DNA from: Candidatus Saccharimonadia bacterium
GTDB lineage: Bacteria > Patescibacteriota > Saccharimonadia > UBA4664
Direction: 5' to 3'
Assembly: GCA_035479295.1 (NCBI GenBank)
Contig: DATIIV010000012.1
Location: forward strand, 65,010-129,009
Length of the DNA stretch: 64,000 nt
A program made the position numbers and the translations under genes. Below are positions 1,429 to 63,676 of this stretch, in pieces (within the stretch, counting starts at the first letter, position 1; every line of letters starts with the position of its first letter). The notes under the pieces are model-generated. The model made no database searches. It was not told the origin of the DNA and saw only the letters and a list, made by a program, of their open reading frames with translations.

Positions 1429-1504
1429 GCGCTCGTAGCTCAGTGGATAGAGCACTTGGCTTCGGACCAAGGTGTCGGGGGTTCGAGTCCCTCCGAGCGC
1501 ACCA
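1429..1504 (+). tRNA. tRNA-Arg (anticodon TCG), CCA encoded
   Basis: Hand-folded cloverleaf. Acceptor GCGCTCG/CGAGCGC, D arm GCTC-AGTGGATA-GAGC, anticodon arm CTTGG-CTTCGGA-CCAAG, T arm GGGGG-TTCGAGT-CCCTC, discriminator A plus CCA. 76 nt. Confidence 0.9.
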
Positions 1505-1537
1505 GGTATCATTTACAATTATTCGTTCCGCACACGC

Positions 1538-1614
1538 GGGCCATTAGCTCAGTTGGTTAGAGCAGGAGACTCTTAATCTCCGTGTCCAGGGTTCGAGTCC
1601 CTGATGGCCCTCCA
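1538..1614 (+). tRNA. tRNA-Lys (anticodon CTT), CCA encoded
   Basis: Acceptor GGGCCAT/ATGGCCC, D arm GCTC-AGTTGGTTA-GAGC, anticodon arm GGAGA-CTCTTAA-TCTCC, T arm CAGGG-TTCGAGT-CCCTG, then T plus CCA. 77 nt. Confidence 0.9.
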
Positions 1615-6690: not shown

Positions 6691-8667
6691 TTACTCATCC
6701 CTCATATCGCTAATCGGACTGCGCCGCACGTTACGCAGGAGCGGCGGCAGGATGGCCACGAGGCTAATGCCGATGATGCTAGCCACGAGCCAGATGAGCT
6801 GGGCGGGGTCGAAGCCGATAAAGCTAAAGCTTTGACCGCGGTCGAACACGCCGAACGTCACCTTGGCGTAGTCGGTTACTTGAGCACTGTAGAGGGCCTG
6901 CACGGTAAACGCAATGCCAAGCCCCAAAATCAAACTGAAGGCGACAATCCGGGCCGCCACAATCAGGCTGTAGAGCAAATATACCGCCATGATGTCGCGC
7001 CGCTTGGCGCCAATAGCTCGGAACACGGCGGTTTCGCGGCGGCTATCGATGATGACTCGCGCCATGGTGGCCCAAATGATGATGCCGGCAATGAGAATGG
7101 CAAACGGCAGGGCGGTGCGCAGGGCTTTGGTTACGGTGGTGTCGATGTCGTCGGCCAGCAGGTAGTTGGATCCGTAGGGCTCGAGGGTGAAGGGCTTGCC
7201 GCAGGAGTTGGTGTCGGGCGGGCAGCCTTGCTGGTGAATAAACGACCGAGCCGCGCCCACCGAGGGGAAGCTCACAATAGCCTCGCCGATGCCGGCAGCG
7301 GTAAGCGTACTGGAGCTGAATTTGCTGGAAGCGAGCAGCACATCTTTGTGCTGGGCTGCCGCGGGGAGTTGGCCAAATAGCTGTTGCGGTATCATGGCGC
7401 CAGCGCCGTACTGCGCCCCCAGCAGCGACGACATGAAGTTGGGCAGGCTCGTTAAGGCATTGGTCTGCGGCGACACCGGCATAACGCCCACAATCATAAA
7501 GGTGAGCAGCTGGTGCTGGGGTGCCTCATAGGCGCCTAGGGCTTGGCTTAGCGCTATCTGGTCCTGCGCCGCCTTTTTCTCATCGGCCGAGCGCTTATCT
7601 TGTTTAACGGTGATATCGCCGCACGGTGCGGTGGGCGGGCTGTAGCTAAGGGCCGGAGGCACGTAGGTTTTATCGTCTTTGTGCTCGGCGGCTGCAGCTG
7701 CTGCTTGGCTCATAGTGGTGAGCTCGCTAATTTCGGCCTCGTTACGGTAGCAAGCGGTGTAGGTGGTGCCATTGAGCTTCTGCTGGAGTGCCTTCATCCA
7801 GGCAATCTGTTGGCTGGCCGAGACTGGTGGCTGCGAGATATTGTAAGACTGACCAAACAAAGTCATGGCTTCGGTCGTCGTAATCACGACGGGAATAGCG
7901 GCCAGGTTAGCTCGACGCTTATCGTTGACCGGCAGAATAAACCGTTTAATGAGGGCATCATCCACCAGCGAGTAAGACGAATTACGCACGCTGGCCGTGA
8001 GGTAGCCGTAGGTGGTTTGATCGGAGCCTTGCGGCCGGGCATTCGGCCCAAGCTTGCTTAAGTCTTCTTTGCCCCCGGCGAGGTAGCTGGTGTTGGCATA
8101 GTTGAGCGCGACGCTCTGGTTTTGGTGAAAAGCGGTGGCTCCATAGGGCGCGGCCGCGGTCTTTAAGTCCGCCAGTTTATTTTTGGCGGTGGCCACATAT
8201 TCGGTTTGGAGTTTCTGAGTGTAGAGCGGATAAACTGGTGAGTCAAAGTTAATGCGCACGCGCCGATCGGCCGGCACCGACGCCTCGGCATAAGGATTAG
8301 GCAGAAGAATCGGCGCTACACTCTGGGGGTCAAATGAGAGCTTAAGCTTCTTGGCCAGATCCTTTTGCTGGGAGATGTAAGTGGCTTGTAGAGTGGTTAA
8401 AGTGGCGATAGTAGCGGCCGACGGGCCGCCTGAGCTAAAGCCAAACACCTCGGGCGGAATGATAGGCTGAGACTTGACTAAGTATTGGCCATCTAGAGCG
8501 GTACGGGTGTAGGCGTGGGCGCTTTTGGAGATGCCGGTGGCCAGCAGGCCCGCCGCGCACAGAATACCAAACGACAGCCCCGATACCACAATGGTAATGG
8601 CGAGCATTATCCGCTTGGTGTGAAGCTTGGCCCGGGCCAGAGTGATCGTGTCGCGCAGGCTGATCAT
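6691..8667 (-). CDS. ABC transporter permease, FtsX/MacB-type with large extracytoplasmic domain
   Basis: N-terminal TM, an extracellular region of about 480 aa, then three C-terminal TM helices with an FtsX-like segment (RETAVFRAIGAKRRDIMAVYLLYSLIVAA). The start overlaps the stop of the upstream ATPase by 4 nt. Confidence 0.85.
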   Translation of the reverse strand: MISLRDTITLARAKLHTKRIMLAITIVVSGLSFGILCAAGLLATGISKSAHAYTRTALDGQYLVKSQPIIPPEVFGFSSGGPSAATIATLTTLQATYISQQKDLAKKLKLSFDPQSVAPILLPNPYAEASVPADRRVRINFDSPVYPLYTQKLQTEYVATAKNKLADLKTAAAPYGATAFHQNQSVALNYANTSYLAGGKEDLSKLGPNARPQGSDQTTYGYLTASVRNSSYSLVDDALIKRFILPVNDKRRANLAAIPVVITTTEAMTLFGQSYNISQPPVSASQQIAWMKALQQKLNGTTYTACYRNEAEISELTTMSQAAAAAAEHKDDKTYVPPALSYSPPTAPCGDITVKQDKRSADEKKAAQDQIALSQALGAYEAPQHQLLTFMIVGVMPVSPQTNALTSLPNFMSSLLGAQYGAGAMIPQQLFGQLPAAAQHKDVLLASSKFSSSTLTAAGIGEAIVSFPSVGAARSFIHQQGCPPDTNSCGKPFTLEPYGSNYLLADDIDTTVTKALRTALPFAILIAGIIIWATMARVIIDSRRETAVFRAIGAKRRDIMAVYLLYSLIVAARIVAFSLILGLGIAFTVQALYSAQVTDYAKVTFGVFDRGQSFSFIGFDPAQLIWLVASIIGISLVAILPPLLRNVRRSPISDMRDE

Positions 8668-9458
8668 ACCAGGACTCCATCGCTGAGCCGGATTTCCCGG
8701 TCGGCTTGGGCGGCAATGTCGGGGTTGTGAGTCACGATCACCACCGTGGTGCCCGCAGTGGCCCGGATATGCTTGAAGAGCTCGATGATGGCCGCGCTGT
8801 TGGTGCTATCCAAGTTGCCGGTGGGCTCGTCGGCCAGCAGGATACGGGGTTTATTAAGCAGGGCCCGGGCCACGGCCGCTCGTTGAATCTGGCCGCCCGA
8901 GAGCTGTTTGGGCAATTGCTGAGCCTGCTCCGATAACCCCACGATTTGGAGCAGCTCGCGGACTCGGGCCTGCCGGTCCGCTGGCTTAACGTGGCCAAAC
9001 ATACCCGGCACCTCCACGTTTTTGCCCAGCGGCAGAAACGGCTGCAGGTAAAAGAATTGAAACACAAAGCCAATGGTTTGATTGCGAAACTCAGCTAAAG
9101 CGGTGTCTTTGAGCCGGCTGAGGTCGTGTCCTTCAATCGTGATTTCGCCGCTGGTGGGCTTATCGAGGCCGCCCATCAGCTGCAGCAGCGTGCTTTTGCC
9201 GCTACCGCTCGCCCCGGTGAGCGCCACAAACTCACCTTCATGGATATCCAGTGACACGCCGTTGAGAGCATTCACTACTTGCTTGCCTCGCTTATATCGC
9301 TTGGCTACATCTTTTACAGACAACACCACTGGTCCGCTCGGAGCCTCCTGAGGCTTGGGCAAGGTAGCGGCTGGAGCTTGCAGTGATTGAGCCGCCAGCA
9401 CGGCATCGCCGTTAAATAACTCCAAGAAATCCCGAATTTGTTGCGGAGTGGCGGTCAT
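8664..9458 (-). CDS. ABC transporter ATP-binding protein (MacB/LolD-like)
   Basis: Walker A GASGSGKST, Q-loop, signature LSGGQIQR, Walker B ILLADEPTGNLD, H-loop VIVTHN. Confidence 0.9.
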   Translation of the reverse strand: MTATPQQIRDFLELFNGDAVLAAQSLQAPAATLPKPQEAPSGPVVLSVKDVAKRYKRGKQVVNALNGVSLDIHEGEFVALTGASGSGKSTLLQLMGGLDKPTSGEITIEGHDLSRLKDTALAEFRNQTIGFVFQFFYLQPFLPLGKNVEVPGMFGHVKPADRQARVRELLQIVGLSEQAQQLPKQLSGGQIQRAAVARALLNKPRILLADEPTGNLDSTNSAAIIELFKHIRATAGTTVVIVTHNPDIAAQADREIRLSDGVLV

Positions 9459-11478: not shown

Positions 11479-11961
11479 TTGCCCCCGGTAAATCATGTTA
11501 TACTTGCCAGCGTGTCAAATTCACCTCAATCTCAGGCGCAAGAATTGGCTGACTTGCGCAATCAGTACCTGGCCAGCATGACCACGGACGACAAGCTGGC
11601 GATTATCCGCAGGAAGCGAGCTACGATTTGGCGCATCCTGCTGATAGCGGCCGTCTTTATGGTGGCGGGCGTGTTGTTCCAGGTGTTCTACGATAGTGTG
11701 CTGGCGGCCCAGCTGCCGGATACGAAGTGGGCGCACCTGGGCGGAGCCGTGGCGTTTGGTGCCACCATTTTCCTGTGGGGCTGTCTGCCGGGCTTGATTC
11801 GGCCCGATTGGTTGGTGCGCGAAGCGGCCACCAAGGCGGTGATCGCCAAACGGCATGACCTGAAAGCGGTGCATGAGGGTCGACAGAAGCGCCTGGGCTG
11901 CCTCGTCGGCTTCCCAGTTCTATTGGTCTACGCGGTGATCATCATCCATTTCTTCTTCTAG
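11479..11961 (+). CDS. hypothetical membrane protein (start uncertain)
   Basis: Four hydrophobic helices (ILLIAAVFMVAGVLFQVFY, AVAFGATIFLWGCLPGL, LGCLVGFPVLLVYAVIIIHFFF). An alternative ATG lies at 11578. Confidence 0.5.
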   Translation: MPPVNHVILASVSNSPQSQAQELADLRNQYLASMTTDDKLAIIRRKRATIWRILLIAAVFMVAGVLFQVFYDSVLAAQLPDTKWAHLGGAVAFGATIFLWGCLPGLIRPDWLVREAATKAVIAKRHDLKAVHEGRQKRLGCLVGFPVLLVYAVIIIHFFF

Positions 11962-11982: not shown

Positions 11983-12015
11983 AGGCCGCCCGGCAGATTG
12001 TCGGGCGGCCTCTTT
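11983..12015 (+). terminator. intrinsic terminator
   Basis: AGGCCGCCCG-GCAGATTGT-CGGGCGGCCT followed by CTTTG. It overlaps the first ~50 nt of the ORF-track model 11998..13263. Confidence 0.6.
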
Positions 12016-12048
12016 GCGCCGGCTACGTCTGCCGTTACACTACCCACA

Positions 12049-13263
12049 GTGGGCAGCCTCTTTACTCTTTTTCATAGCCTAATTTTGTCGCTACATATAG
12101 CGGCTTTTCCGGTATCGCCGTTTGTTTTTTCGACCCCGCAGGTGCCCTCGACGGCCGAGAATCCCCAGCCGCTGCGGGTGGTGACGCGCGTGATCGAGCC
12201 GTTTGTGATCGATGAGGGCAACGGTAAATATAGCGGCTACAGCATGGAGCTGCTCGACCTCATCCACCAGGAGCTCAAAGAGCCGAGCCTGCCGGCGGGG
12301 CAAGATTATGCCCTGTCGCCTCAGCAAAAAGCCGTTATTAATCTGCCCTTTGCTATCGAATCCCAGCCGGCCGCTAACGCCGAGGCGCTTGTTAAAACCG
12401 TTCAGGACAACGGCGCCGATCTCGGCATCGCCAGCATCTCCATCACGCAGGATCGCGAGGCTCGGGTCGACTTTAGCCTGCCCATGTACAGCTCGGGTTT
12501 GCAGGTGATGCAAACCACCGACAAGGCGCCCGGCCCAAACATCATGACGGCGCTCGGACATATCTTGAGCCGCCCCAAAACGCCGGCGGTTCTGTGGCTA
12601 GGATTCATCGGCATGGCGACGCTAGCCACTCTTATTTACCTGTTTGAGCAGCGTCACAGCAAGAGCTTTCTGTTTGGTGAGCCGCCGCTGGTGGGCATTG
12701 GCAACGCTTTTTGGTGGGGGCTAACCGTGTTGGTGGGCCAAGAAGAAGCGCACCCGCGGTCGAGTGTGAGTCGGCTGGCGGCTACCTTAATTATGGCTAC
12801 CGGTGTAATTGTTGTAGCGCTCTTTACGGCCTCGGTGGCCTCGGACTTAACGTTGCAGCAGCTGGACGATCCCGAGCGCGGCATCGATAGTCTAAACGGC
12901 CATGTAGTGGTGACGCTCGACGGCACAACCTCCGAATCCTACCTGGACCAGAAGCGGGTTGAGCTCAAGATTAAAGCCATCAAAACAGTTGGCACCTTGG
13001 ATGACGCCTACGCTATGCTCAAGAACGGCCAGGCCGACTCGCTGGTGTACGACGCACCTGTGTTGCAGTATTATGCTAGCCACCAGGGCCGTGGCAAGTT
13101 TACGACGGTGGGGCGGCCGTTTCACTCGGAGTATTACGGCATTGTCCTGCCTCAGGGCAGCCCCTGGCGCGAGCCGATTAGTCGAGCATTGCTGACGTTG
13201 TCCGAGGACGGCACGCTCGACCACTTGGCGCAAACGTACTTGGGCGATGCTAGCAACAATTAG
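12049..13263 (+). CDS. GluR0/iGluR-like ligand-gated ion channel (periplasmic-binding-protein lobes split by a 2-TM + pore-loop module)
   Basis: SBP type-3 lobe 1 (VVTRVIEPFVIDE...GIASISITQDREARVDFSLPMYSSGLQVM). TM VLWLGFIGMATLATLIYLF. Pore-loop IGNAFWWGLTVLVGQEE. TM LAATLIMATGVIVVALFTASVASDLT. Lobe 2 (VVTLDGTTSESYL...DSLVYDAPVLQYY...YYGIVLPQGSPWREPISRALLTL). The start is uncertain: GTG 12049 is the first candidate past the terminator hairpin. Confidence 0.8.
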   Translation: MGSLFTLFHSLILSLHIAAFPVSPFVFSTPQVPSTAENPQPLRVVTRVIEPFVIDEGNGKYSGYSMELLDLIHQELKEPSLPAGQDYALSPQQKAVINLPFAIESQPAANAEALVKTVQDNGADLGIASISITQDREARVDFSLPMYSSGLQVMQTTDKAPGPNIMTALGHILSRPKTPAVLWLGFIGMATLATLIYLFEQRHSKSFLFGEPPLVGIGNAFWWGLTVLVGQEEAHPRSSVSRLAATLIMATGVIVVALFTASVASDLTLQQLDDPERGIDSLNGHVVVTLDGTTSESYLDQKRVELKIKAIKTVGTLDDAYAMLKNGQADSLVYDAPVLQYYASHQGRGKFTTVGRPFHSEYYGIVLPQGSPWREPISRALLTLSEDGTLDHLAQTYLGDASNN

Positions 13264-24347: not shown

Positions 24348-25106
24348 ATGGACATCCCATTAACCGCCATAACAACCGCCATCGGCGTCCTCGTCATGTT
24401 TGGCGCCTGGTTCTTTGTGGGGCAGCGCATGAGGCAGAGCCACGTCGCCGTTCTGCGCCCCGTGCAGCTGTTCAACCAATTCTTTTTGAGCATGGCCGTC
24501 TTCTTTACCATCATGGCCGTGCCGCATATCTGGCTGTTCATCGACCCGAGCCAGTTCCCGATCTGGATGGCCTGGGGTTATGTGGTTGGCCACATTTTCT
24601 TGTACCTGGCCTTCATTAATATCATCCGCATGACCTTTACCATCGTGCCCAAGCTGACGCCCAAGGCGCCGTTGGCCGTAGGGGCCGCTATCGTCGTTAC
24701 CGTGGCGGTCACCATCATTAATGCCGTTACTATGATCTTTGGCACGCGCCCCAGCTACGACTACGTGCAGCATGTCACCCAGTTTAACGCCTCGCCGATT
24801 GTGGGCGCTTCCATTGGGATCTTTGCGGCGCTGGCGGTCTTTCCGCCGGCCATCTTATTTATTGTTAACGCCTTTAAGGCGCAGGGCAATCGGCGGGTGC
24901 GGTCGCTCATTCTGGGCATTGGGCTCATTTTGCTTATGACGGCTGGCCCACTGCACGATGTGGCCAAGAACTGGCAGACTTACATGCTGGCTGATATCTT
25001 CTCGATCTTGAGCATCATCGTCACCGGCACCGGCGTCGTCTACCGCCTGGAGCAGAGCCTCACCGTGGAGCCGCAGCCCGTGCCCGCCCCTACAGCTGGT
25101 CGATGA
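24348..25106 (+). CDS. 7-TM membrane protein, unknown family (paralog 2)
   Basis: 252 aa with the same helix pattern and motifs as 23531..24283. The 3' end overlaps the convergent histidine kinase gene by 17 nt. Confidence 0.75.
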   Translation: MDIPLTAITTAIGVLVMFGAWFFVGQRMRQSHVAVLRPVQLFNQFFLSMAVFFTIMAVPHIWLFIDPSQFPIWMAWGYVVGHIFLYLAFINIIRMTFTIVPKLTPKAPLAVGAAIVVTVAVTIINAVTMIFGTRPSYDYVQHVTQFNASPIVGASIGIFAALAVFPPAILFIVNAFKAQGNRRVRSLILGIGLILLMTAGPLHDVAKNWQTYMLADIFSILSIIVTGTGVVYRLEQSLTVEPQPVPAPTAGR

Positions 25107-26754
25107 GCGTCGACACCTCGGCCTCGACTACCTTGGCGTGGTCGCGCTGCAGCTGGCTAAACGGTGGCACTTCTAGGTAAAAGGTCGAGCCATGGTTGAG
25201 CGTACTCTTGCACCAGACCTTGGCGTTGAGTCGCTCGGCCAGCTCGAGGCAGAGGTACAGGCCGAGGCCGGTGCCGCCGGTCTCGCGAGTCCGGTAGTCC
25301 TCTGAGCGGTAGAATTTGGTGAATAAGTGGCGCTGGTCGCTGGCCGAGATGCCGATGCCGCTATCTTGCACGGCAAAGAGTACGCCGCCGTTTTGGCTTG
25401 GTGCAGCCTTAACAATGATGCCGCCCTCCTGGGTGTACTTCATGGCGTTGGTCAGGTAGTTCTGTAGCACCTCATGAATGTGGTGCTCGGTGGAGAGTAT
25501 GGAGGGTGTGTTGGGCAGCAACACGAGCTTGAGCGACAGGTTCTTCTCCTTGGCCTGGGGCATAAAGTCGTTGACCAACTGTTCGAGCAACAGCTTGGGA
25601 TTAACTGGCCGCAGCTGAATCGGAATAGTATCGTCTTGGGCCTGCGACAGGGTGGTGAGGTCGCGCACGATGCTGCCCAAAAAGACCGTATTGCGGTGCG
25701 CCTGCTCGAGCAAGAGGGTCAGCTGTGACGATAGCTGAGGCTTGGCTAGTAGGGCCGTTGATAGTGCGGCTTCCACAATAGTGAGCGGCGTGCGCAGTTC
25801 GTGCGAGGCCACGGCGATAAACTCTTCGCGCTGCTGATCGAGCGACTTCTCCTTGGTAATATCGCGGCCCACGATAATGTAGTTGATGGCGCCGGCCGCC
25901 CCCAACCGCACAGGCGTAATACTAATATCTAGGTCGGTGATGCTGCCGTCGGGGGCCGCATAGCCCAGATCGCGGCGCTGTTGAGGATCGGTGTTGCCTT
26001 GGGCGAGCTCTACCAGGGAGACGGCCTGCTTGGAGCGGCGCTGGAGCGGCAGTACCTTGGTGAGGTCGCGGCCGCGCAGCTCACCTTTGGCGCTCACGAG
26101 CGCTTGGGCGGCTCCATTGTGCAGAATAATCCGGCCGCGGTCATCAATCATAAAGATGGCGTCGTTGAGGCTATTAACCAGATTGAGCAATCGCTCGCGC
26201 TCGGTCTGGTTGTCGCGACTCAGCGCCTCTAGCTCGTGGCGCTCTTGGCGCTCGGCCCGCGTGAGCCGCTCCACAAATACTCCAATGATCAGCAGTACGA
26301 GCAGACTAATGGCGATGGTGCGCGGTTCGCTTAAGCTTAGGGGTTTGAAGGGCGCCCACATGGCGGTCGGAATCAGGGCTAAGGCTTGGCCGGCAATAAC
26401 GCCGAGTGAGCCGCGCAGACCATACCAATACGCCGCCGAGATAATCATAAAGACCAGAAAGGCCGAGTAGGGGGTGGAGATGCTCCCCACCAGGAGCAGC
26501 AGTGCCGCCACAAACAAGTTATCGAGCACGAGCATGGTAATGCGCGACGAGAGCAGGCGCAATCGGCCAAAGTTGGGCAGATAGTGCAGCATGTTGTAGG
26601 CCGCCGACACGCACATGAGGCCGTATAAGAACAGGCTCTGGGGCTGATCTGGCGGTATCGTAATGAGCGCCGTGCCGATGGTGAGCCAACGCACCTGGCG
26701 CGTTACGCGCTCGTAGTTGGCGGCTTTGTGGAGGGCTCGACCGTGGTTGTCCAT
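25090..26754 (-). CDS. sensor histidine kinase (multi-TM N-terminus, PAS-like, HisKA, HATPase_c)
   Basis: H-box FIAVASHELRTPLT, N-box LQNYLTNAMKYT, G1 VQDSGIGI, G2 GGTGLGLYLC. Five or six N-terminal TM helices. A PAS-like segment (IFMIDDRGRIILHNGAAQ). Confidence 0.9.
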   Translation of the reverse strand: MDNHGRALHKAANYERVTRQVRWLTIGTALITIPPDQPQSLFLYGLMCVSAAYNMLHYLPNFGRLRLLSSRITMLVLDNLFVAALLLLVGSISTPYSAFLVFMIISAAYWYGLRGSLGVIAGQALALIPTAMWAPFKPLSLSEPRTIAISLLVLLIIGVFVERLTRAERQERHELEALSRDNQTERERLLNLVNSLNDAIFMIDDRGRIILHNGAAQALVSAKGELRGRDLTKVLPLQRRSKQAVSLVELAQGNTDPQQRRDLGYAAPDGSITDLDISITPVRLGAAGAINYIIVGRDITKEKSLDQQREEFIAVASHELRTPLTIVEAALSTALLAKPQLSSQLTLLLEQAHRNTVFLGSIVRDLTTLSQAQDDTIPIQLRPVNPKLLLEQLVNDFMPQAKEKNLSLKLVLLPNTPSILSTEHHIHEVLQNYLTNAMKYTQEGGIIVKAAPSQNGGVLFAVQDSGIGISASDQRHLFTKFYRSEDYRTRETGGTGLGLYLCLELAERLNAKVWCKSTLNHGSTFYLEVPPFSQLQRDHAKVVEAEVSTLIDQL

Positions 26755-34758: not shown

Positions 34759-36987
34759 TTAGCTCTGGGCGGCGGCGCCAGACTCAGCCGTTTTGGCTCT
34801 AGCCTTAGCTTCGGCCGCTGCTCCGTTGGGTTGCGGCAGCACAATTACCGAAGTGGTCTTAAGCGGCAGCGCGAAGCCAAAGATGCTACCCTTGCCCTCC
34901 TCGGACTTAAAAATAATCGAGCCACCTTGGTCCTCGATCACGCGCTTAGCTAGGTACAAGCCCAAGCCGGTGCCGTCCGGCCGCTCGGCCTTGGCGTTCT
35001 CGGCCCGGTAAAACTTGGAGAACAGGTGACGCTTCTCGTTCTCTGGCACGCCAATGCCGCTATCGATTACCAGCACCTCGGCAGCGCCCTCAGACTCGCG
35101 CACCTCCACCGTGACGCTGCCCTTGGGCGTGTAGTAAATGGCATTATCGATAAAATTCATAATCACCTGGCGCGTCTTGCTCTCGTCGATCGACAGCATG
35201 GGCAGCGGCTTGTCGGGCTGCTTAAAGATGAGTTCCAGCTTCTTGCGCTCGGCGCTCGGCCGCAGCTGCTGCACCTCCTGCTGGGCCAGCTCGCTCAAGT
35301 CCACCGGCTGGCGCTGAATCATAAACCGCCCCGAGCTCAGTCGCGACACATTCAGCAGATCGCTCGACATCGACACCATCCGCTCGGCCGCCTCTAGCGC
35401 GTAGTTAACATACTCGCGCTGCTTCACCGTCATGTTGGCCTGGTCGTCATCGAGCGCCATCGACAAGTAGCCGGTAATGGCGGTCAGCGGCGTGCCCAGC
35501 TGGTGCGACGCCATCGAGATGAAGTCGTCTTTGGTCTTATCCAGCACCTGCAAGTTGCGGTTGGCGGTGCGCAGTCGGTGCGTCGCATTGCGAATCCGCT
35601 CCTGCAGCGTGGCGTTAAAGTGGGCGATCTCTTCGTAGGATTTAGCGTTCTCAATCGCTACGGCTAGTTCTTTGCGGACGATATCGAGCAGCGTCAGATC
35701 CTGGCCCGAATACATTTCGCCACTCATCTTGTAGCCCAGGAAGAGATAGCCCACTAGCTCTTTCTCGGTGCTTAACCTAATAATGACGCCTAGGCCATGC
35801 TCCTCTAGGAATGATTTGGTTGCACCGGGCTCAAGCTCATCTGCTACCAAGGTGCTAGCGTTAATGTGCTCTAAATCCTTGTAGGTAAGTTTATAACGGG
35901 GCTCGTCACCAATGAATGTACGACTATAAATACTGTTGTTCTCGACAATGATGATTTGACCAGTAGCGATGCGCAATGACCAACAGAGCGTGCGCAATGA
36001 CTTCTTGAGGAGCGGTTCAAGTAAGAGCTCTGAAGTCAGAATCTCGCTTAAATCATCGAGCACGATCTGACTGTCGTAGCGATCTCGAAAGAATATGCTG
36101 TCGGTGACCTTCTCGAACAGTCGGCGTAAAGGCTGAAAGGTAATGGCTAGAAATAGCGCCAGGGCAACAAAGACACCAGTTTGGGCTAGCGGGATATTAT
36201 TCTGAAAGAGAATGTTGCTTGCCGCTAGGATGGTAATTCCATACAGGCCAATAAAAGTTGTAAGAAGCAAAAGATAGGCAACTGATCGGGCGACGGCTAG
36301 CCTGATACTAAAGAGTCGATGCTTAACGATAGCGTACGAGACCGACCCCACCAAGAAAACGGTTAGCAATGGGCCGATGCGCGATATGTCCCAGTTGCCG
36401 ACGATAGCCGGAATGACAATGTTTGTGAGCACAGCCAAGATAATAAAACCCGCTATTCCCAGCATAATAAGACGAGTTTGAGCGCGAAGCCGCAAGTCGA
36501 TTCCAGTGTTCCGGTACAGCTTCCAGAGGTAGTAGCAAGATAGTCCAAACATCACCAAGATGAAAATGGGGTAGAGAGTATAAAGGCTGCCGAGAGCAAC
36601 GTTGGTTCCTCCGTCGGGCCGCTTTGAGACGGGACCAACCACGAAATCGCTTAAAGAGAAGATGGTGCCAGCAATAATAATGACGGCACTAACAAGCTGT
36701 CTCCGCTTGCTGGCGCTTTGTTTGCCGCCAAAGTAAAACGCAAACAACGTTATGGTGGCTAACACGAGAAAACCGGCGCCAAAGTCAAGGCGAGCAAAGA
36801 ACTGATCAAGGCCAAGCGTGGGAGCTCGGTCGGTAAGATAATTGAAGATCGTCCAGGCGGTGATTGACAGGGAGATGCCAAAAAACGCCCGACTCTCGGC
36901 TCGCTGAGGGTTACGCATAAACACGAGCGAGCCGAGAGCCAAATTGCTTACTGAGGCGAGTATGAGGATGGCGAGGTCAAATATCAT
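34759..36987 (-). CDS. multi-TM + GAF sensor histidine kinase (HisKA_7TM/PrsK-like architecture), paralog A
   Basis: About nine N-terminal TM helices (MIFDLAILILASVSNLALGSLVFMRNP...). GAF-like block (LVGYLFLGYKMSGEMYSGQDLTLLDIVRKELAVAIENAKSYEEI). H-box FISMASHQLGTPLT, N-box NFIDNAIYYT, DSGIGV, GTGLGLYLAK. ATGA overlap with the upstream gene. Confidence 0.9.
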   Translation of the reverse strand: MIFDLAILILASVSNLALGSLVFMRNPQRAESRAFFGISLSITAWTIFNYLTDRAPTLGLDQFFARLDFGAGFLVLATITLFAFYFGGKQSASKRRQLVSAVIIIAGTIFSLSDFVVGPVSKRPDGGTNVALGSLYTLYPIFILVMFGLSCYYLWKLYRNTGIDLRLRAQTRLIMLGIAGFIILAVLTNIVIPAIVGNWDISRIGPLLTVFLVGSVSYAIVKHRLFSIRLAVARSVAYLLLLTTFIGLYGITILAASNILFQNNIPLAQTGVFVALALFLAITFQPLRRLFEKVTDSIFFRDRYDSQIVLDDLSEILTSELLLEPLLKKSLRTLCWSLRIATGQIIIVENNSIYSRTFIGDEPRYKLTYKDLEHINASTLVADELEPGATKSFLEEHGLGVIIRLSTEKELVGYLFLGYKMSGEMYSGQDLTLLDIVRKELAVAIENAKSYEEIAHFNATLQERIRNATHRLRTANRNLQVLDKTKDDFISMASHQLGTPLTAITGYLSMALDDDQANMTVKQREYVNYALEAAERMVSMSSDLLNVSRLSSGRFMIQRQPVDLSELAQQEVQQLRPSAERKKLELIFKQPDKPLPMLSIDESKTRQVIMNFIDNAIYYTPKGSVTVEVRESEGAAEVLVIDSGIGVPENEKRHLFSKFYRAENAKAERPDGTGLGLYLAKRVIEDQGGSIIFKSEEGKGSIFGFALPLKTTSVIVLPQPNGAAAEAKARAKTAESGAAAQS

Positions 36988-53844: not shown

Positions 53845-56013
53845 ATGGATTATCGGGCATTACTTCTATTTTTAGTAACGGCTGCGAATCTTTTCCTGGG
53901 TCTTGCCGTTTACTTTCGCAATCCTCGCAATCGCCAGTATATCTATTATTTTGCTTTTGCCTCATCGATAGCGCTCTGGACCTTAACCAACGGGCTCTAT
54001 CAGATTTTCCCGCCGCGCCTCCTTTTATCGATGGCGCTTTTGAGCTATGCCAGTGCCATCCTTATGGCCACCTTTTTCCTGCTGTTTAACCGTGAGTTTA
54101 CCAAAATTAAGCTAGGTCCTGACTGGCTGATCCTGCTTGTGGGCGGCCTAATGGCCTTAGTCGCGCTCAAACCTGGCGTACTAGCCTCCTCGATCGCTGC
54201 TGATCGCTCCATTGTTACTACTCCGGGAATCGCTGTTATGGCCATCTTGCTGGTTGGGTTTCTGTCGTGGGGCTTATTACTGTTGGTTGCATCGTTGCGC
54301 CGAGCTCGAGGCTTAGTCCGCACTCAGCTGCAGTTTATGTTGGCTGGTATGACAACTGCCGCCTTAATGGGGGTGCTATTTAACTTAGCACTACCGGTAA
54401 TGGGCCATATTTATACCTATGTTTATCTCGGCCCCGACTTCACGACTTTTTACGTCGCTGCCATTGCCTACAGCGTTATTCGGCAGCGTCTCTTTAACTT
54501 ACGGGTAGCTATTGCTCGGACGATAGCGTATCTTTTGGTCTTAACGGCTATGGCTGGCATGTACATTGCGGCTATTTTAAGTATAACTTCATACTTCTTG
54601 CCGTCGGGTCGGATCTCTGGCAGCCAAAATCTGATCTCGACCGTCGTAGCGATTGTACTGGTTTTCACCTTCCAACCCCTCCGCCGCTTCTTTGAGCGCG
54701 TTACCGACAGTGTGTTTTATCGTGATCGGTACGATTCGCAGGTGGTGTTGAATGAGTTCAGCAAGGTGCTGGTGTCGGAGCTGGATCTGGATCGGATTCT
54801 GCGCCGCAGCCTCAGTCAGCTGTGCCGCGACGTGCACATTCAGTTTGGGCAGCTGGTGATCTTTAATCAGGACCGAGTGTACCGGGTGGAGCACTTTGGG
54901 CCGCTGCCCAAGCGGCTGATGGTGGCGCCGGAGCTGCGGCGGCTGGATGAGTCGCTGCTGGTGGCCGATGAGCTTGAGGCCGGCGAGCGCAAGACCATCA
55001 TGGACGAGCACGCCGTGCGTGTATCGGTGCGGCTGGCCACCCGCGATGAGTTCGTGGGCTACCTGCTGCTGGGCGATAAGCTGTCGGGCGATATTTACTC
55101 CAACCAAGACATTGAGCTGCTGGAGATTATCGGTAAGGAGCTGGCCGTGGCGATTCTGAATGCCAAGGCCTATGCCGAGATCGAGGCTTTTAACCGCACA
55201 CTGCAGGAGCGGGTCGATCACGCCACCAATCGACTGCGCGTGGCTAACCGCCACCTCAAAGAGCTTGATAAAGCCAAAGATGAGTTTATTAGCATGGCCT
55301 CGCACCAGCTGCGCACGCCGCTCACTACCATTAAGGGCTATCTGAGCATGATGCTGGAGGGCGATGCCGGGCGTCTCACCGCCGCCCAGAAGCAGTTTGC
55401 CGGCTACGCTTTTAGCTCGTCGGAGCGCATGGTTAACCTCATCTCCGACCTGCTTAATGTAAGCCGCCTAAGTGCCGGCCGTTTTCTGATTCAAACCAAG
55501 CCCACCGATATGGTGGCGATGGTGGCCGACGAGGTGCGTCAGCTGCAGAGCCATGCCGCGGCTAAGCACATTAGCCTCATCTTTGAGCAGCCACCAGCTG
55601 ACTTTCCGCTGGTGGAGATCGATGAGAACAAGACGCGCCAAGTCATCATGAACTTTATCGACAACGCCATTTACTACACCCAGACCGGCAGCGTGCGGGT
55701 GCGGCTTACCTTGGCCGGGCCGATCGTGCGGCTCGAGGTCATCGACACTGGCATTGGCGTGCCAGCAGCCGAGAAGCGCCACCTGTTCACCAAATTTTAC
55801 CGGGCCGAGAATGCCCAGGTGGTGCGGCCAGACGGTACCGGTCTAGGTCTGTATTTGGCCAAACGAGTGGTGGAAGATCAAGATGGTACAATACTATTTA
55901 GTAGCACCGAAGGCAAGGGTTCGGTGTTTGGATTTGAGCTACCGATTAAGCCCCGCCACAAGTCGGCGCCCAAATCGGCCAACGATAAGCAGAAGGAAAA
56001 CCAGCATGGCTAA
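53845..56013 (+). CDS. multi-TM + GAF sensor histidine kinase (HisKA_7TM/PrsK-like architecture), paralog B
   Basis: About nine TM helices (MDYRALLLFLVTAANLFLGLAVYFRNP...). GAF-like block (FVGYLLLGDKLSGDIYSNQDIELLEIIGKELAVAILNAKAYAEI). H-box FISMASHQLRTPLT, NFIDNAIYYT, DTGIGV, GTGLGLYLAK. Colinear with 34759..36987. Confidence 0.9.
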   Translation: MDYRALLLFLVTAANLFLGLAVYFRNPRNRQYIYYFAFASSIALWTLTNGLYQIFPPRLLLSMALLSYASAILMATFFLLFNREFTKIKLGPDWLILLVGGLMALVALKPGVLASSIAADRSIVTTPGIAVMAILLVGFLSWGLLLLVASLRRARGLVRTQLQFMLAGMTTAALMGVLFNLALPVMGHIYTYVYLGPDFTTFYVAAIAYSVIRQRLFNLRVAIARTIAYLLVLTAMAGMYIAAILSITSYFLPSGRISGSQNLISTVVAIVLVFTFQPLRRFFERVTDSVFYRDRYDSQVVLNEFSKVLVSELDLDRILRRSLSQLCRDVHIQFGQLVIFNQDRVYRVEHFGPLPKRLMVAPELRRLDESLLVADELEAGERKTIMDEHAVRVSVRLATRDEFVGYLLLGDKLSGDIYSNQDIELLEIIGKELAVAILNAKAYAEIEAFNRTLQERVDHATNRLRVANRHLKELDKAKDEFISMASHQLRTPLTTIKGYLSMMLEGDAGRLTAAQKQFAGYAFSSSERMVNLISDLLNVSRLSAGRFLIQTKPTDMVAMVADEVRQLQSHAAAKHISLIFEQPPADFPLVEIDENKTRQVIMNFIDNAIYYTQTGSVRVRLTLAGPIVRLEVIDTGIGVPAAEKRHLFTKFYRAENAQVVRPDGTGLGLYLAKRVVEDQDGTILFSSTEGKGSVFGFELPIKPRHKSAPKSANDKQKENQHG

Positions 56014-59865: not shown

Positions 59866-62126
<2,261 letters not shown>

Positions 62127-62128
62127 GG

Positions 62129-63672
<1,544 letters not shown>

Positions 63673-63676
<4 letters not shown>

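Follow-up and report, generated by a model that had tools for sequence, protein, structure and literature searches.

The gene at positions 11998-13263 of the window (the whole 64,000-nucleotide stretch that was analysed, from contig DATIIV010000012.1) probably encodes a prokaryote-type homologue of the ionotropic glutamate receptors (iGluRs) belonging to the GluR0/GIC family. It is composed of a signal peptide, a ligand-binding clamshell of two halves (S1 and S2) and an inverted pore with two transmembrane (TM) helices, and we infer that it is a cation channel without selectivity for K+. Its architecture, fold, conserved binding residues, missing K+ signature, membership of a class of short-loop bacterial pores, and the likeness of its loop to that of AMPA, kainate and delta receptors were all directly established. 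The T-V-G-Y-G filter is absent from the protein under study (the query), whose pore loop reads LVGQEEAHP. It was deposited as HSX02218.1 under the name 'transporter substrate-binding domain-containing protein', and the metagenome-assembled genome is labelled Candidatus Saccharimonadia by NCBI.

According to the listing of open reading frames (ORFs), the maximal ORF lies on the + strand, opens with a TTG codon and encodes 421 aa; the NCBI model of the identical protein starts at TTG 12085 and encodes 392 aa. Residues are numbered on the 421-aa ORF unless stated otherwise, which corresponds to the numbering of the NCBI model plus 29. The features are located in Table 1.

Table 1. Features of the query gene and of the remainder of the window.
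Feature	Coordinates	Strand	Evidence
GC-rich hairpin (13-bp stem, 3-nt loop) followed by CTCTTTG	11984-12016	+	Sequence, RNA fold
Probable GTG start (12049) and signal peptide (M)GSLFTLFHSLILSLHIAA, cleaved before FPVSP	12049-12105	+	Translation, relatives
S1 half of the clamshell (lobe 1)	12172-12516	+	Pfam Lig_chan-Glu_bd, alignment to 2pyy
M1 transmembrane helix, residues 194-217	12577-12648	+	AlphaFold2 (pLDDT above 90), Pfam Lig_chan
Re-entrant pore helix PLVGIGNAFWWGLTVLV, residues 230-246	12685-12735	+	AlphaFold2; one Trp invariant
Pore-region peptide IGNAFWWGLTVLVGQEEAHPRS	12697-12762		Translation
Pore-loop limb GQEEAHPRS, residues 247-255	12736-12762	+	AlphaFold2, class alignment
Second transmembrane helix (equivalent to eukaryotic M3), residues 256-290, ending in the gate motif ALFTASVASDLT	12763-12867	+	AlphaFold2
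Gate-region peptide ALFTASVASDLT	12817-12852		Translation
S2 half of the clamshell (lobe 2), to the stop codon	12868-13263	+	Alignment to 2pyy residues 104-219
tRNA-Arg(TCG) and tRNA-Lys(CTT), side by side	1429-1614		
PAS-containing histidine kinase	25090-26754		
Paralogous histidine kinase, 742 aa, N-terminal 7TM sensor (HisKA_7TM)	34759-36987	-	
Paralogous histidine kinase, 722 aa, N-terminal 7TM sensor (HisKA_7TM)	53845-56013	+	
F-type ATP synthase alpha and beta genes with a 285-aa ORF between them (presumably gamma)	59866-63676		

Architecture, fold and ligand-binding site

The query is matched in Pfam by SBP_bac_3, split over residues 61-416 (8.5e-16), by Lig_chan-Glu_bd at residues 59-173 (6e-11), and by Lig_chan at residues 199-303 (4.4e-9), the last of these lying between the two SBP_bac_3 halves. 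Unlike in a substrate-binding protein of an ATP-binding cassette (ABC) transporter, a pore module of approximately 100 residues splits the binding fold, as seen both with Pfam and in the AlphaFold2 model. The top match in the PDB is 2pyy (4e-39), a structure of the ligand-binding core from a GluR0 homologue of Nostoc punctiforme, reportedly solved with L-glutamate bound, and chains of eukaryotic NMDA, AMPA and kainate receptors and of plant GLR3.4 align over the full span from S1 through the pore to S2 (1e-18 to 1e-16).

The AlphaFold2 monomer model, built from an alignment of 63 relatives, has a mean predicted local distance difference test score (pLDDT) of 90.8 and a predicted template modelling score (pTM) of 0.81. 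In the 392-aa numbering, it places M1 at residues 165-188, the pore helix at 201-217 and the second TM helix at 227-261; the pore helix ends in ...TVLV and is followed by the nine-residue, non-helical limb GQEEAHPRS. The model contains no membrane-spanning helix after S2, and before S1 only the signal region. When compared with the PDB by Foldseek, it found AMPA-receptor chains comprising the ligand-binding domain (LBD) and transmembrane domain (TMD) first, with E values of about 1e-22 over approximately 395 aligned columns at 20% identity. The layout is that of GluR0, S1-M1-re-entrant loop-M2-S2, without N-terminal domain, M4 or C-terminal domain. A preliminary description of the gene had proposed this architecture, with no further C-terminal TM helix, and a loop lacking T-V-G-Y-G; Pfam, PDB, AlphaFold2 and Foldseek bear out the former, and the latter is confirmed by the Pfam family Ion_trans_2, on which the query scores 13.9 bits, under the cutoff of 22.5 bits, compared with 47.8-61.8 bits for those relatives that carry the classic filter (referred to as K type).

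The ligand-site residues of the query align with the binding core of 2pyy. Across the 63 relatives Arg153 is invariant, and Thr150, Thr311 and Asp352 are nearly so (R124, T121, T282 and D323 in the 392-aa numbering). Thr150 and Arg153, both in S1, occupy the positions that bind the alpha-carboxylate of the ligand, while Asp352 in S2 is the Asp that binds its alpha-amino group; this Arg/Asp pair is reported to be totally conserved in prokaryotic iGluRs (Ger et al. 2010, PMC2950845). The best matches in NCBIfam are glutamine-binding proteins, which score far under their cutoffs. Compared with the Nostoc GluR0 core, S1 contains an insertion of about 24 residues, visible as a gap in the 2pyy alignment (window positions 12178-12300, residues ~61-100 of the 392-aa model), which AlphaFold2 models confidently as a short helix and a strand, and at the same site the relatives in the clade carry different insertions. 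By inspection of the alignment, an equivalence of this insertion with loop 1 of eukaryotic receptors was rejected: the insertion precedes the strand that, in GluA2, is followed by loop 1.

A short-loop class among bacterial iGluR homologues

A search of 5.8 billion proteins returned 162 relatives at E < 1e-5, and an exhaustive HMMER search over 1.84 billion cluster representatives yielded 4416 matches at E ≤ 1e-3, of which 242 reached E ≤ 1e-30. Clustered at 50% identity, the query remains a singleton, the next cluster being 47% identical, and related sequences at 47-62% identity retain its loop. The pore loops of 259 aligned relatives were classified in register. The classic TVGYG filter was present in 114 of them, a short loop with a fixed Gln (e.g. 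TLATQADQMPKS) in 62, and the loop of the query itself, [LMI][VF]GQE[ED]xHP, in 17; PQNDLG was found in a further 17, GEYG in nine, GGDA in five, and assorted other loops in 35. Based on these counts, non-K+ loops are common among the bacterial relatives.

Seventy-nine of the 259 share a single loop length, two residues under that of the K type, together with the fixed Gln. In this short-loop class the residue before the Gln is Gly, Thr or Ala, the second residue after it is acidic (64/78), and the Pro four residues past it is followed by Lys or Arg (66/78). The query conforms with Gln248, Glu249-Glu250 (the latter at the second position), and Pro253 followed by R-S. Acidic residues at both positions after the Gln are limited, among the 259 relatives, to the sub-clade of 17 members that includes the query, which is only 35-40% identical to the main short-loop group, TQAD(Q/E)MP. 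In a distance tree calculated without the loop columns the GQEE sequences and the other short-loop sequences still come together, apart from the K type; since this grouping persists without the loop, the class is a lineage and not merely a shared motif. Five residues do not vary across 36 non-redundant short-loop pores with 23-63% identity to the query, namely the Gln, one pore-helix Trp, the Pro, and both Ala and Thr in FTA..T; such invariance among divergent sequences argues that the short-loop pore is under functional constraint.

This conservation bears on the proposal, which we consider very unlikely, that the protein is no channel at all and acts as an amino-acid sensor or binding protein anchored in the membrane, the onetime pore module now being only an anchor or signalling element. 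In that case the names given by NCBI and JGI to the query and its relatives, transporter or polar-amino-acid substrate-binding proteins, would be partly right, and it agrees with the proposal that function has been shown for no Group 2 member (the prokaryotic iGluRs without K+ filter of Ger et al.) and that members without signal peptides are mentioned by the same authors. The (near) invariance of the pore-lining Trp, Gln, Pro and FTA..T in 36 divergent sequences is, however, hard to square with a mere anchor, and the whole M1-loop-M2 module is modelled at high confidence. Moreover, no amino-acid ABC permease is adjacent to the gene, the ABC/FtsX pair found nearby being of another type and on the opposite strand, and Ger et al. 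report no ABC-transporter domains in prokaryotic iGluR proteins.

The gate motif FTA..T is invariant or nearly so in all bacterial classes. The query and several short-loop relatives carry an acidic residue within it (SDLT/SELT; Ser-Asp of the query at 12832-12843), at the position taken by Phe in SYTANLAAFLT and by S, N or A in most other bacterial members; the outer mouth of the gate could thereby become more negatively charged. Some homologues have a composite organization. P0122 (2362 aa) contains five iGluR-like matched stretches (533-868, 866-1136, 1266-1543, 1672-1949 and 2080-2301), and P0174 (1315 aa) contains two long ones (61-353 and 472-805) in addition to a short N-terminal fragment; both could be concatenated, pseudo-oligomeric channels. 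The K-type homologues P0046, P0048, P0051, P0074 and others, of approximately 700 aa, carry an N-terminal glycine-betaine-type binding domain (PF04069, OpuAC) ahead of the LBD, an arrangement reminiscent, by analogy, of the gain of an N-terminal domain by eukaryotic iGluRs.

Pore profiles and phylogeny

In the textbook account, the non-selective pore of eukaryotes evolved from a K+-selective, GluR0-like ancestor. When a profile of the 36 short-loop pores was run against the PDB, its 60 best matches were all AMPA receptors (top match 2.7e-10, 43.5 bits); the 60 best matches of a profile of 35 K-type bacterial pores were all K+ channels (KvAP, 1.9e-14). The short-loop profile, gifealwWalstlagQa.eemPrs, aligns over GIFNSLWFSLGAFMQQGcDISPRS of GluA1, which places the invariant Gln (248) on Q587 of GluA; the preceding Gly247 then falls at the Q/R site, Glu250 at the +4 Asp, and the two PRS motifs coincide, in a register that is uncertain by one residue. 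The loop of GluD2 has the same length as the bacterial short loop, the HMMER alignment of the two being ungapped.

Reciprocal scoring of the two profiles (Table 2) showed the short-loop profile to be 22-25 bits lower than the K-type profile on K+ channels and a modest 7-12 bits higher on GluA1, GluK2, GluD2 and GluN2A, with no gain for GluN1. Two other measures of eukaryote likeness were discarded. The Pfam Lig_chan score failed to discriminate between the classes (36.7-73.7 bits for short-loop versus 52.0-67.7 bits for K-type members), and the idea that the whole protein is nearer to eukaryotic iGluRs was abandoned, as profiles of the LBD only scored equally on the S1S2 core of GluA2 (90.6 versus 90.4 bits).

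Table 2. Scores (bits) of the two bacterial pore profiles on eukaryotic iGluRs and K+ channels; the target fragments were checked to be 100% identical to the PDB chains.
Target	Short-loop profile	K-type profile
GluA1	46.6	39.5
GluK2	37.6	28.6
GluD2	27.7	16.2
GluN2A	25.8	13.9
GluN1	36.0	35.7
Three K+ channel sequences	23.8-34.0	46.3-59.0

A neighbour-joining tree of the pore module (71 sequences, 95 columns, rooted on K+ channels, 40 bootstraps) displayed the eukaryotic pores as monophyletic, with a sister group containing only short-loop bacterial sequences in 33/40 bootstraps; the query is part of this immediate sister group. After removal of 14 loop columns, the eukaryotes were sister to all bacterial iGluRs in 16/40 bootstraps, to short-loop sequences only in 13/40, and to K-type sequences only in 6/40. 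Judged from these comparisons, likeness to eukaryotes beyond that of the K-type members is confined to about 14 loop columns, with which shared ancestry and convergence are both compatible.

The preliminary description had aligned the loop by eye with the M2 loop of AMPA and kainate receptors, and HMMER reproduced this alignment with the 36-pore profile. Its broader claim, that the pore is eukaryote-like rather than K+-channel-like, stands at the level of the class, in its profile matches and in the tree calculated with the loop; it does not carry over to the single sequence, which is equidistant from both, nor to the tree without the loop columns, and the gain in bits comes from the loop only. 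It had also seen in the end of the following helix a relative of SYTANLAAFLT. The query gate LFTASVASDLT does align with SYTANLAAFL(T/V) of GluA and GluN1, but PRS and FTAS..LT are also present in TVGYG-bearing bacterial members, and for this reason neither motif sets the query apart from GluR0.

Proposed mechanism and alternative readings of the pore

By homology with GluR0 and the eukaryotic iGluRs, four subunits would form the pore. An alpha-amino acid would bind between S1 and S2 via Arg153, Thr150, Thr311 and Asp352, and closure of the clamshell would then pull the M2-S2 linker and open the helix-bundle gate at LFTASVASDLT. The G-Q-E-E limbs of the tetramer would present a ring of Gln and up to eight carboxylates. 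The resulting cation channel is predicted not to be K+-selective, because the short loop cannot form the five-residue carbonyl filter of K+ channels, and divalent cations and polyamines may pass through it or block it. GluR0 of Synechocystis is gated by amino acids and takes part in the ionic-stress response (PMC13099474), and by analogy the query would probably allow the cell to convert the availability of external amino acids into a flow of cations and hence a shift in membrane potential.

Several points weigh against a non-K+-selective channel. In the papers searched, functional data were found neither for the short-loop class nor for any other non-K+ bacterial iGluR, and channel activity and selectivity of the query are therefore purely inferred. 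The signal peptide of the query is weak and uncharged and its start codon is uncertain. No conserved gene neighbours hinting at a physiological role were present in the window and at two loci of clade relatives. The AlphaFold2 model is of the monomer only. Finally, the pore segment of the query taken alone matches a KcsA analogue (6.5e-4) on a par with the eukaryotic receptors GluN1 (6e-3) and GluA2 (9e-3) and with Lmo2059 (7e-3). In these single-sequence HMMER alignments GQEEAHPRS is placed on GLGEGAPRS of GluN1, and VGQEE on VGYGD of the two K+ channels, the KcsA analogue and Lmo2059, which makes a degenerate K+-type filter a valid reading of the sequence.

According to this alternative, which we regard as rather unlikely, VGQEE is derived from VGYGD, K+ or monovalent cations are still the main ions to pass the pore, much as in NaK or cyclic nucleotide-gated (CNG) channels, and the likeness to AMPA and kainate receptors is convergent or trivial. 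In addition to the single-sequence matches, some clade members reach Ion_trans_2 scores of 21-25 bits, the acidic residue matches the Asp that follows GYG in 111/114 K-type members, the eukaryotic pores no longer prefer the short-loop class once the loop columns are removed, and the LBDs of both classes are equidistant from GluA2. On the other hand, the loop has neither the Tyr nor the other Gly of the motif, its length falls two residues short of that needed for a K+ filter, the class profile ranks AMPA receptors over all K+ channels, and a Gln that is invariant across the class would not be expected from mere decay.

The predicted helix boundary also speaks against this alternative. With the helix ending in ...TVLV, G-Q comes to lie at the T-V of K+ channels, and placing VG on VG requires a shortened helix. 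A deletion in the extended limb is favoured, because the modelled pore helix ends eight residues past the first Trp, as it does in GluA and KcsA. The register VGQEE = VGYGD, with the deletion in the pore helix, was considered less likely: in addition to the helix end, the T-L-A-T-Q of sister groups keeps the K-type Thr in register. The homology frame that we propose on this basis would align T-V-G-Y-G-D-x-x-P of the K type with [TGA]-Q-x-(two missing)-[DE]-x-x-P of the short loop and Q-Q-G-C-(one missing)-D-I-S-P of GluA, from which it would follow that all three share one position for the acidic residue. That GluR0 possesses a counterpart to the +4 Asp is also noted in a 2025 paper (PMC12226733). 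The loop might just as well be taken for a K+ filter with a deletion the size of YG (T-V-G-Y-G-D to G-Q-E-E). The frame resembles the difference between CNG and K+ channels, which are likewise set apart by a gap the size of YG.

Compared with the non-K+-selective channel that we favour, a further-reaching interpretation is unlikely. It would hold that the short, Gln-bearing acidic loop is homologous to the eukaryotic M2 loop, that, in contrast to the textbook account, the non-K+-selective iGluR pore is bacterial in origin and was inherited by eukaryotes, and that the query represents a minimal amino-acid-gated, Ca2+-permeable channel, which could serve as a tractable model for the pore of eukaryotes.

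Gene start and genomic context

The hairpin at 11984-12010 begins 23 nt past the stop (11961) of the upstream ORF 11479-11961. This region folds with -44.5 kcal/mol (z = -3.7; none of 200 shuffles was equally stable), and together with the CTCTTTG it probably acts as terminator for the upstream ORF, one that a simple terminator scan did not report because its T-run is short. TTG 11998 falls within the loop and 3' arm of the 13-bp hairpin. A start inside a GC-rich hairpin just past the stop of the upstream ORF is unlikely, and the location of this codon in a likely terminator means that the annotated start needs revision. The start of the NCBI model leaves no signal peptide. In the relatives of the clade, signal peptides end in AxA and are cleaved right before a conserved (A/M)FP; the corresponding context in the query reads HIAA|FPVSP, and on these grounds GTG 12049 is preferred. 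Judging by the translation, it is probably the true start, with TTG 11998 and TTG 12085 as alternatives, and the choice leaves the body of the gene unaffected.

The uncertain start, the weak and uncharged signal peptide, the opening of the maximal ORF inside a hairpin and the singleton status of the query could together point to a decaying or mis-assembled gene of a metagenome bin without functional product. We hold this to be extremely improbable: the frame is intact over the full family-length span with all family-invariant residues kept, the AlphaFold2 model is confident, the same loop is retained by the relatives at 47-62% identity, and the signal peptide of the closest relative, P0002, is likewise uncharged.

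The neighbours of the gene encode an FtsX permease and ABC ATPase, a glyoxalase-fold protein, three unknown ORFs, a DUF1801 protein, a NUDIX protein, a small membrane protein and an extracytoplasmic function (ECF) sigma factor. The ABC genes (6691-9458, minus strand) comprise an FtsX-type permease and its ATPase and not an amino-acid importer. Since no neighbours are common to the window and the loci of P0016 and P0009, the gene context provides no functional clue. A scan of genome contigs for close relatives of the query found only stretches of 22-23% identity, in Methylacidiphilum. The window is otherwise ordinary chromosome, with a GC content of 52-65%, and encodes two tRNAs, ECF sigma factors, several histidine kinases, a GH5 cellulase, a P-type ATPase and an F-type ATP synthase.

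Significance

Reviews up to 2025 still present the K+-selective GluR0 as the bacterial archetype, which turned into the non-selective receptors of eukaryotes. The survey shows that a large share of the bacterial iGluR homologues is without K+ filter and that one coherent class aligns with the AMPA/kainate/delta loop. Should one of these proteins prove to be ligand-gated and non-selective or Ca2+-permeable, it would offer a prokaryotic model of about 390 residues for permeation, for the Q/R-site region and for polyamine block, and the question whether the eukaryotic pore type predates eukaryotes would become testable. The query is a rare Glu-Glu variant from an uncultured bacterium and by itself no new kind of system; as a single gene it will not surprise the specialist, and it is a reasonable entry to the question of the origin of the eukaryotic iGluR pore. 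The automatic name under which it was deposited hides and misnames such channels.

Comparison with known systems

Bacterial iGluR homologues without K+ filter have been catalogued before. Ger et al. 2010 (PLoS One 5:e12827) listed 22 prokaryotic iGluR channels, 12 of them with a K+ filter (Group 1), judged Group 2 to be nearer to eukaryotic iGluRs, and proposed naming them putative glutamate-sensitive ion channels. The preliminary description had allowed that the loop might turn out to be a degenerate K+ filter typical of already catalogued homologues, and this is partly the case, as the non-K+ members have been known as Group 2 since 2010. Group 2 includes the Nostoc/Anabaena proteins NP_486951.1 and ABA20613.1, which, like the query, have the S1-M1-loop-M2-S2 organization, no K+ signature and the Arg/Asp pair. 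The short-loop class appears to correspond to at least part of Group 2, a match based on organism and annotation. In line with the Nostoc proteins in that group, the Nostocales relative P0035 carries the short loop TLATQADEMPKG, and S2 of 2pyy scores 174.5 bits with the short-loop profile versus 155.9 bits with the K-type profile; the 2pyy protein seems to lie close to this group. The query differs from its Group 2 relatives by the rare G-Q-E-E-[AS]-H-P, with two acidic residues and a His, and by the S1 insertion of about 24 residues. No description of the invariant Gln, or of an AMPA match at the profile level, was found in the accessible literature.

With Synechocystis GluR0 (slr1257; Chen et al. 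1999) and the remainder of Group 1, the query shares the domain order, the absence of an amino-terminal domain (ATD) and of M4, FTAS..LT, P-[KR]-[ST] and the ligand residues. The GluR0-type proteins carry TTVGYGD and find their best match, at the level of the pore profile, in K+ channels, whereas the query is without the motif and has a loop that is two residues shorter. Compared with the AMPA/kainate/delta loop Q-Q-G-C-D-I-S-P-R-S, the query reads G-Q-E-(gap)-E-A-H-P-R-S; the bacterial Gln falls on Q587, one residue after the Q/R site and not on the site itself, within the alignment uncertainty of one residue. Its AlphaFold2 model superposes best on LBD-TMD chains of AMPA receptors, but in contrast to the eukaryotic iGluRs it has no ATD, M4 or C-terminal domain, and identity is approximately 20%.

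The pores of CNG channels and NaK are K+-channel pores with a shortened filter and an acidic residue (TIGET in CNG channels), which are non-selective and Ca2+-permeable or Ca2+-blocked. The query loop likewise resembles T-V-G-Y-G-D minus two residues, with acidic side chains. This would be a functional analogy only, as CNG channels and NaK have the opposite membrane orientation, another gating domain and no detectable specific sequence relationship with the query. Non-K+ bacterial iGluRs are known and catalogued, if functionally uncharacterised, and the query is a new, divergent member of them, a rare Glu-Glu variant.

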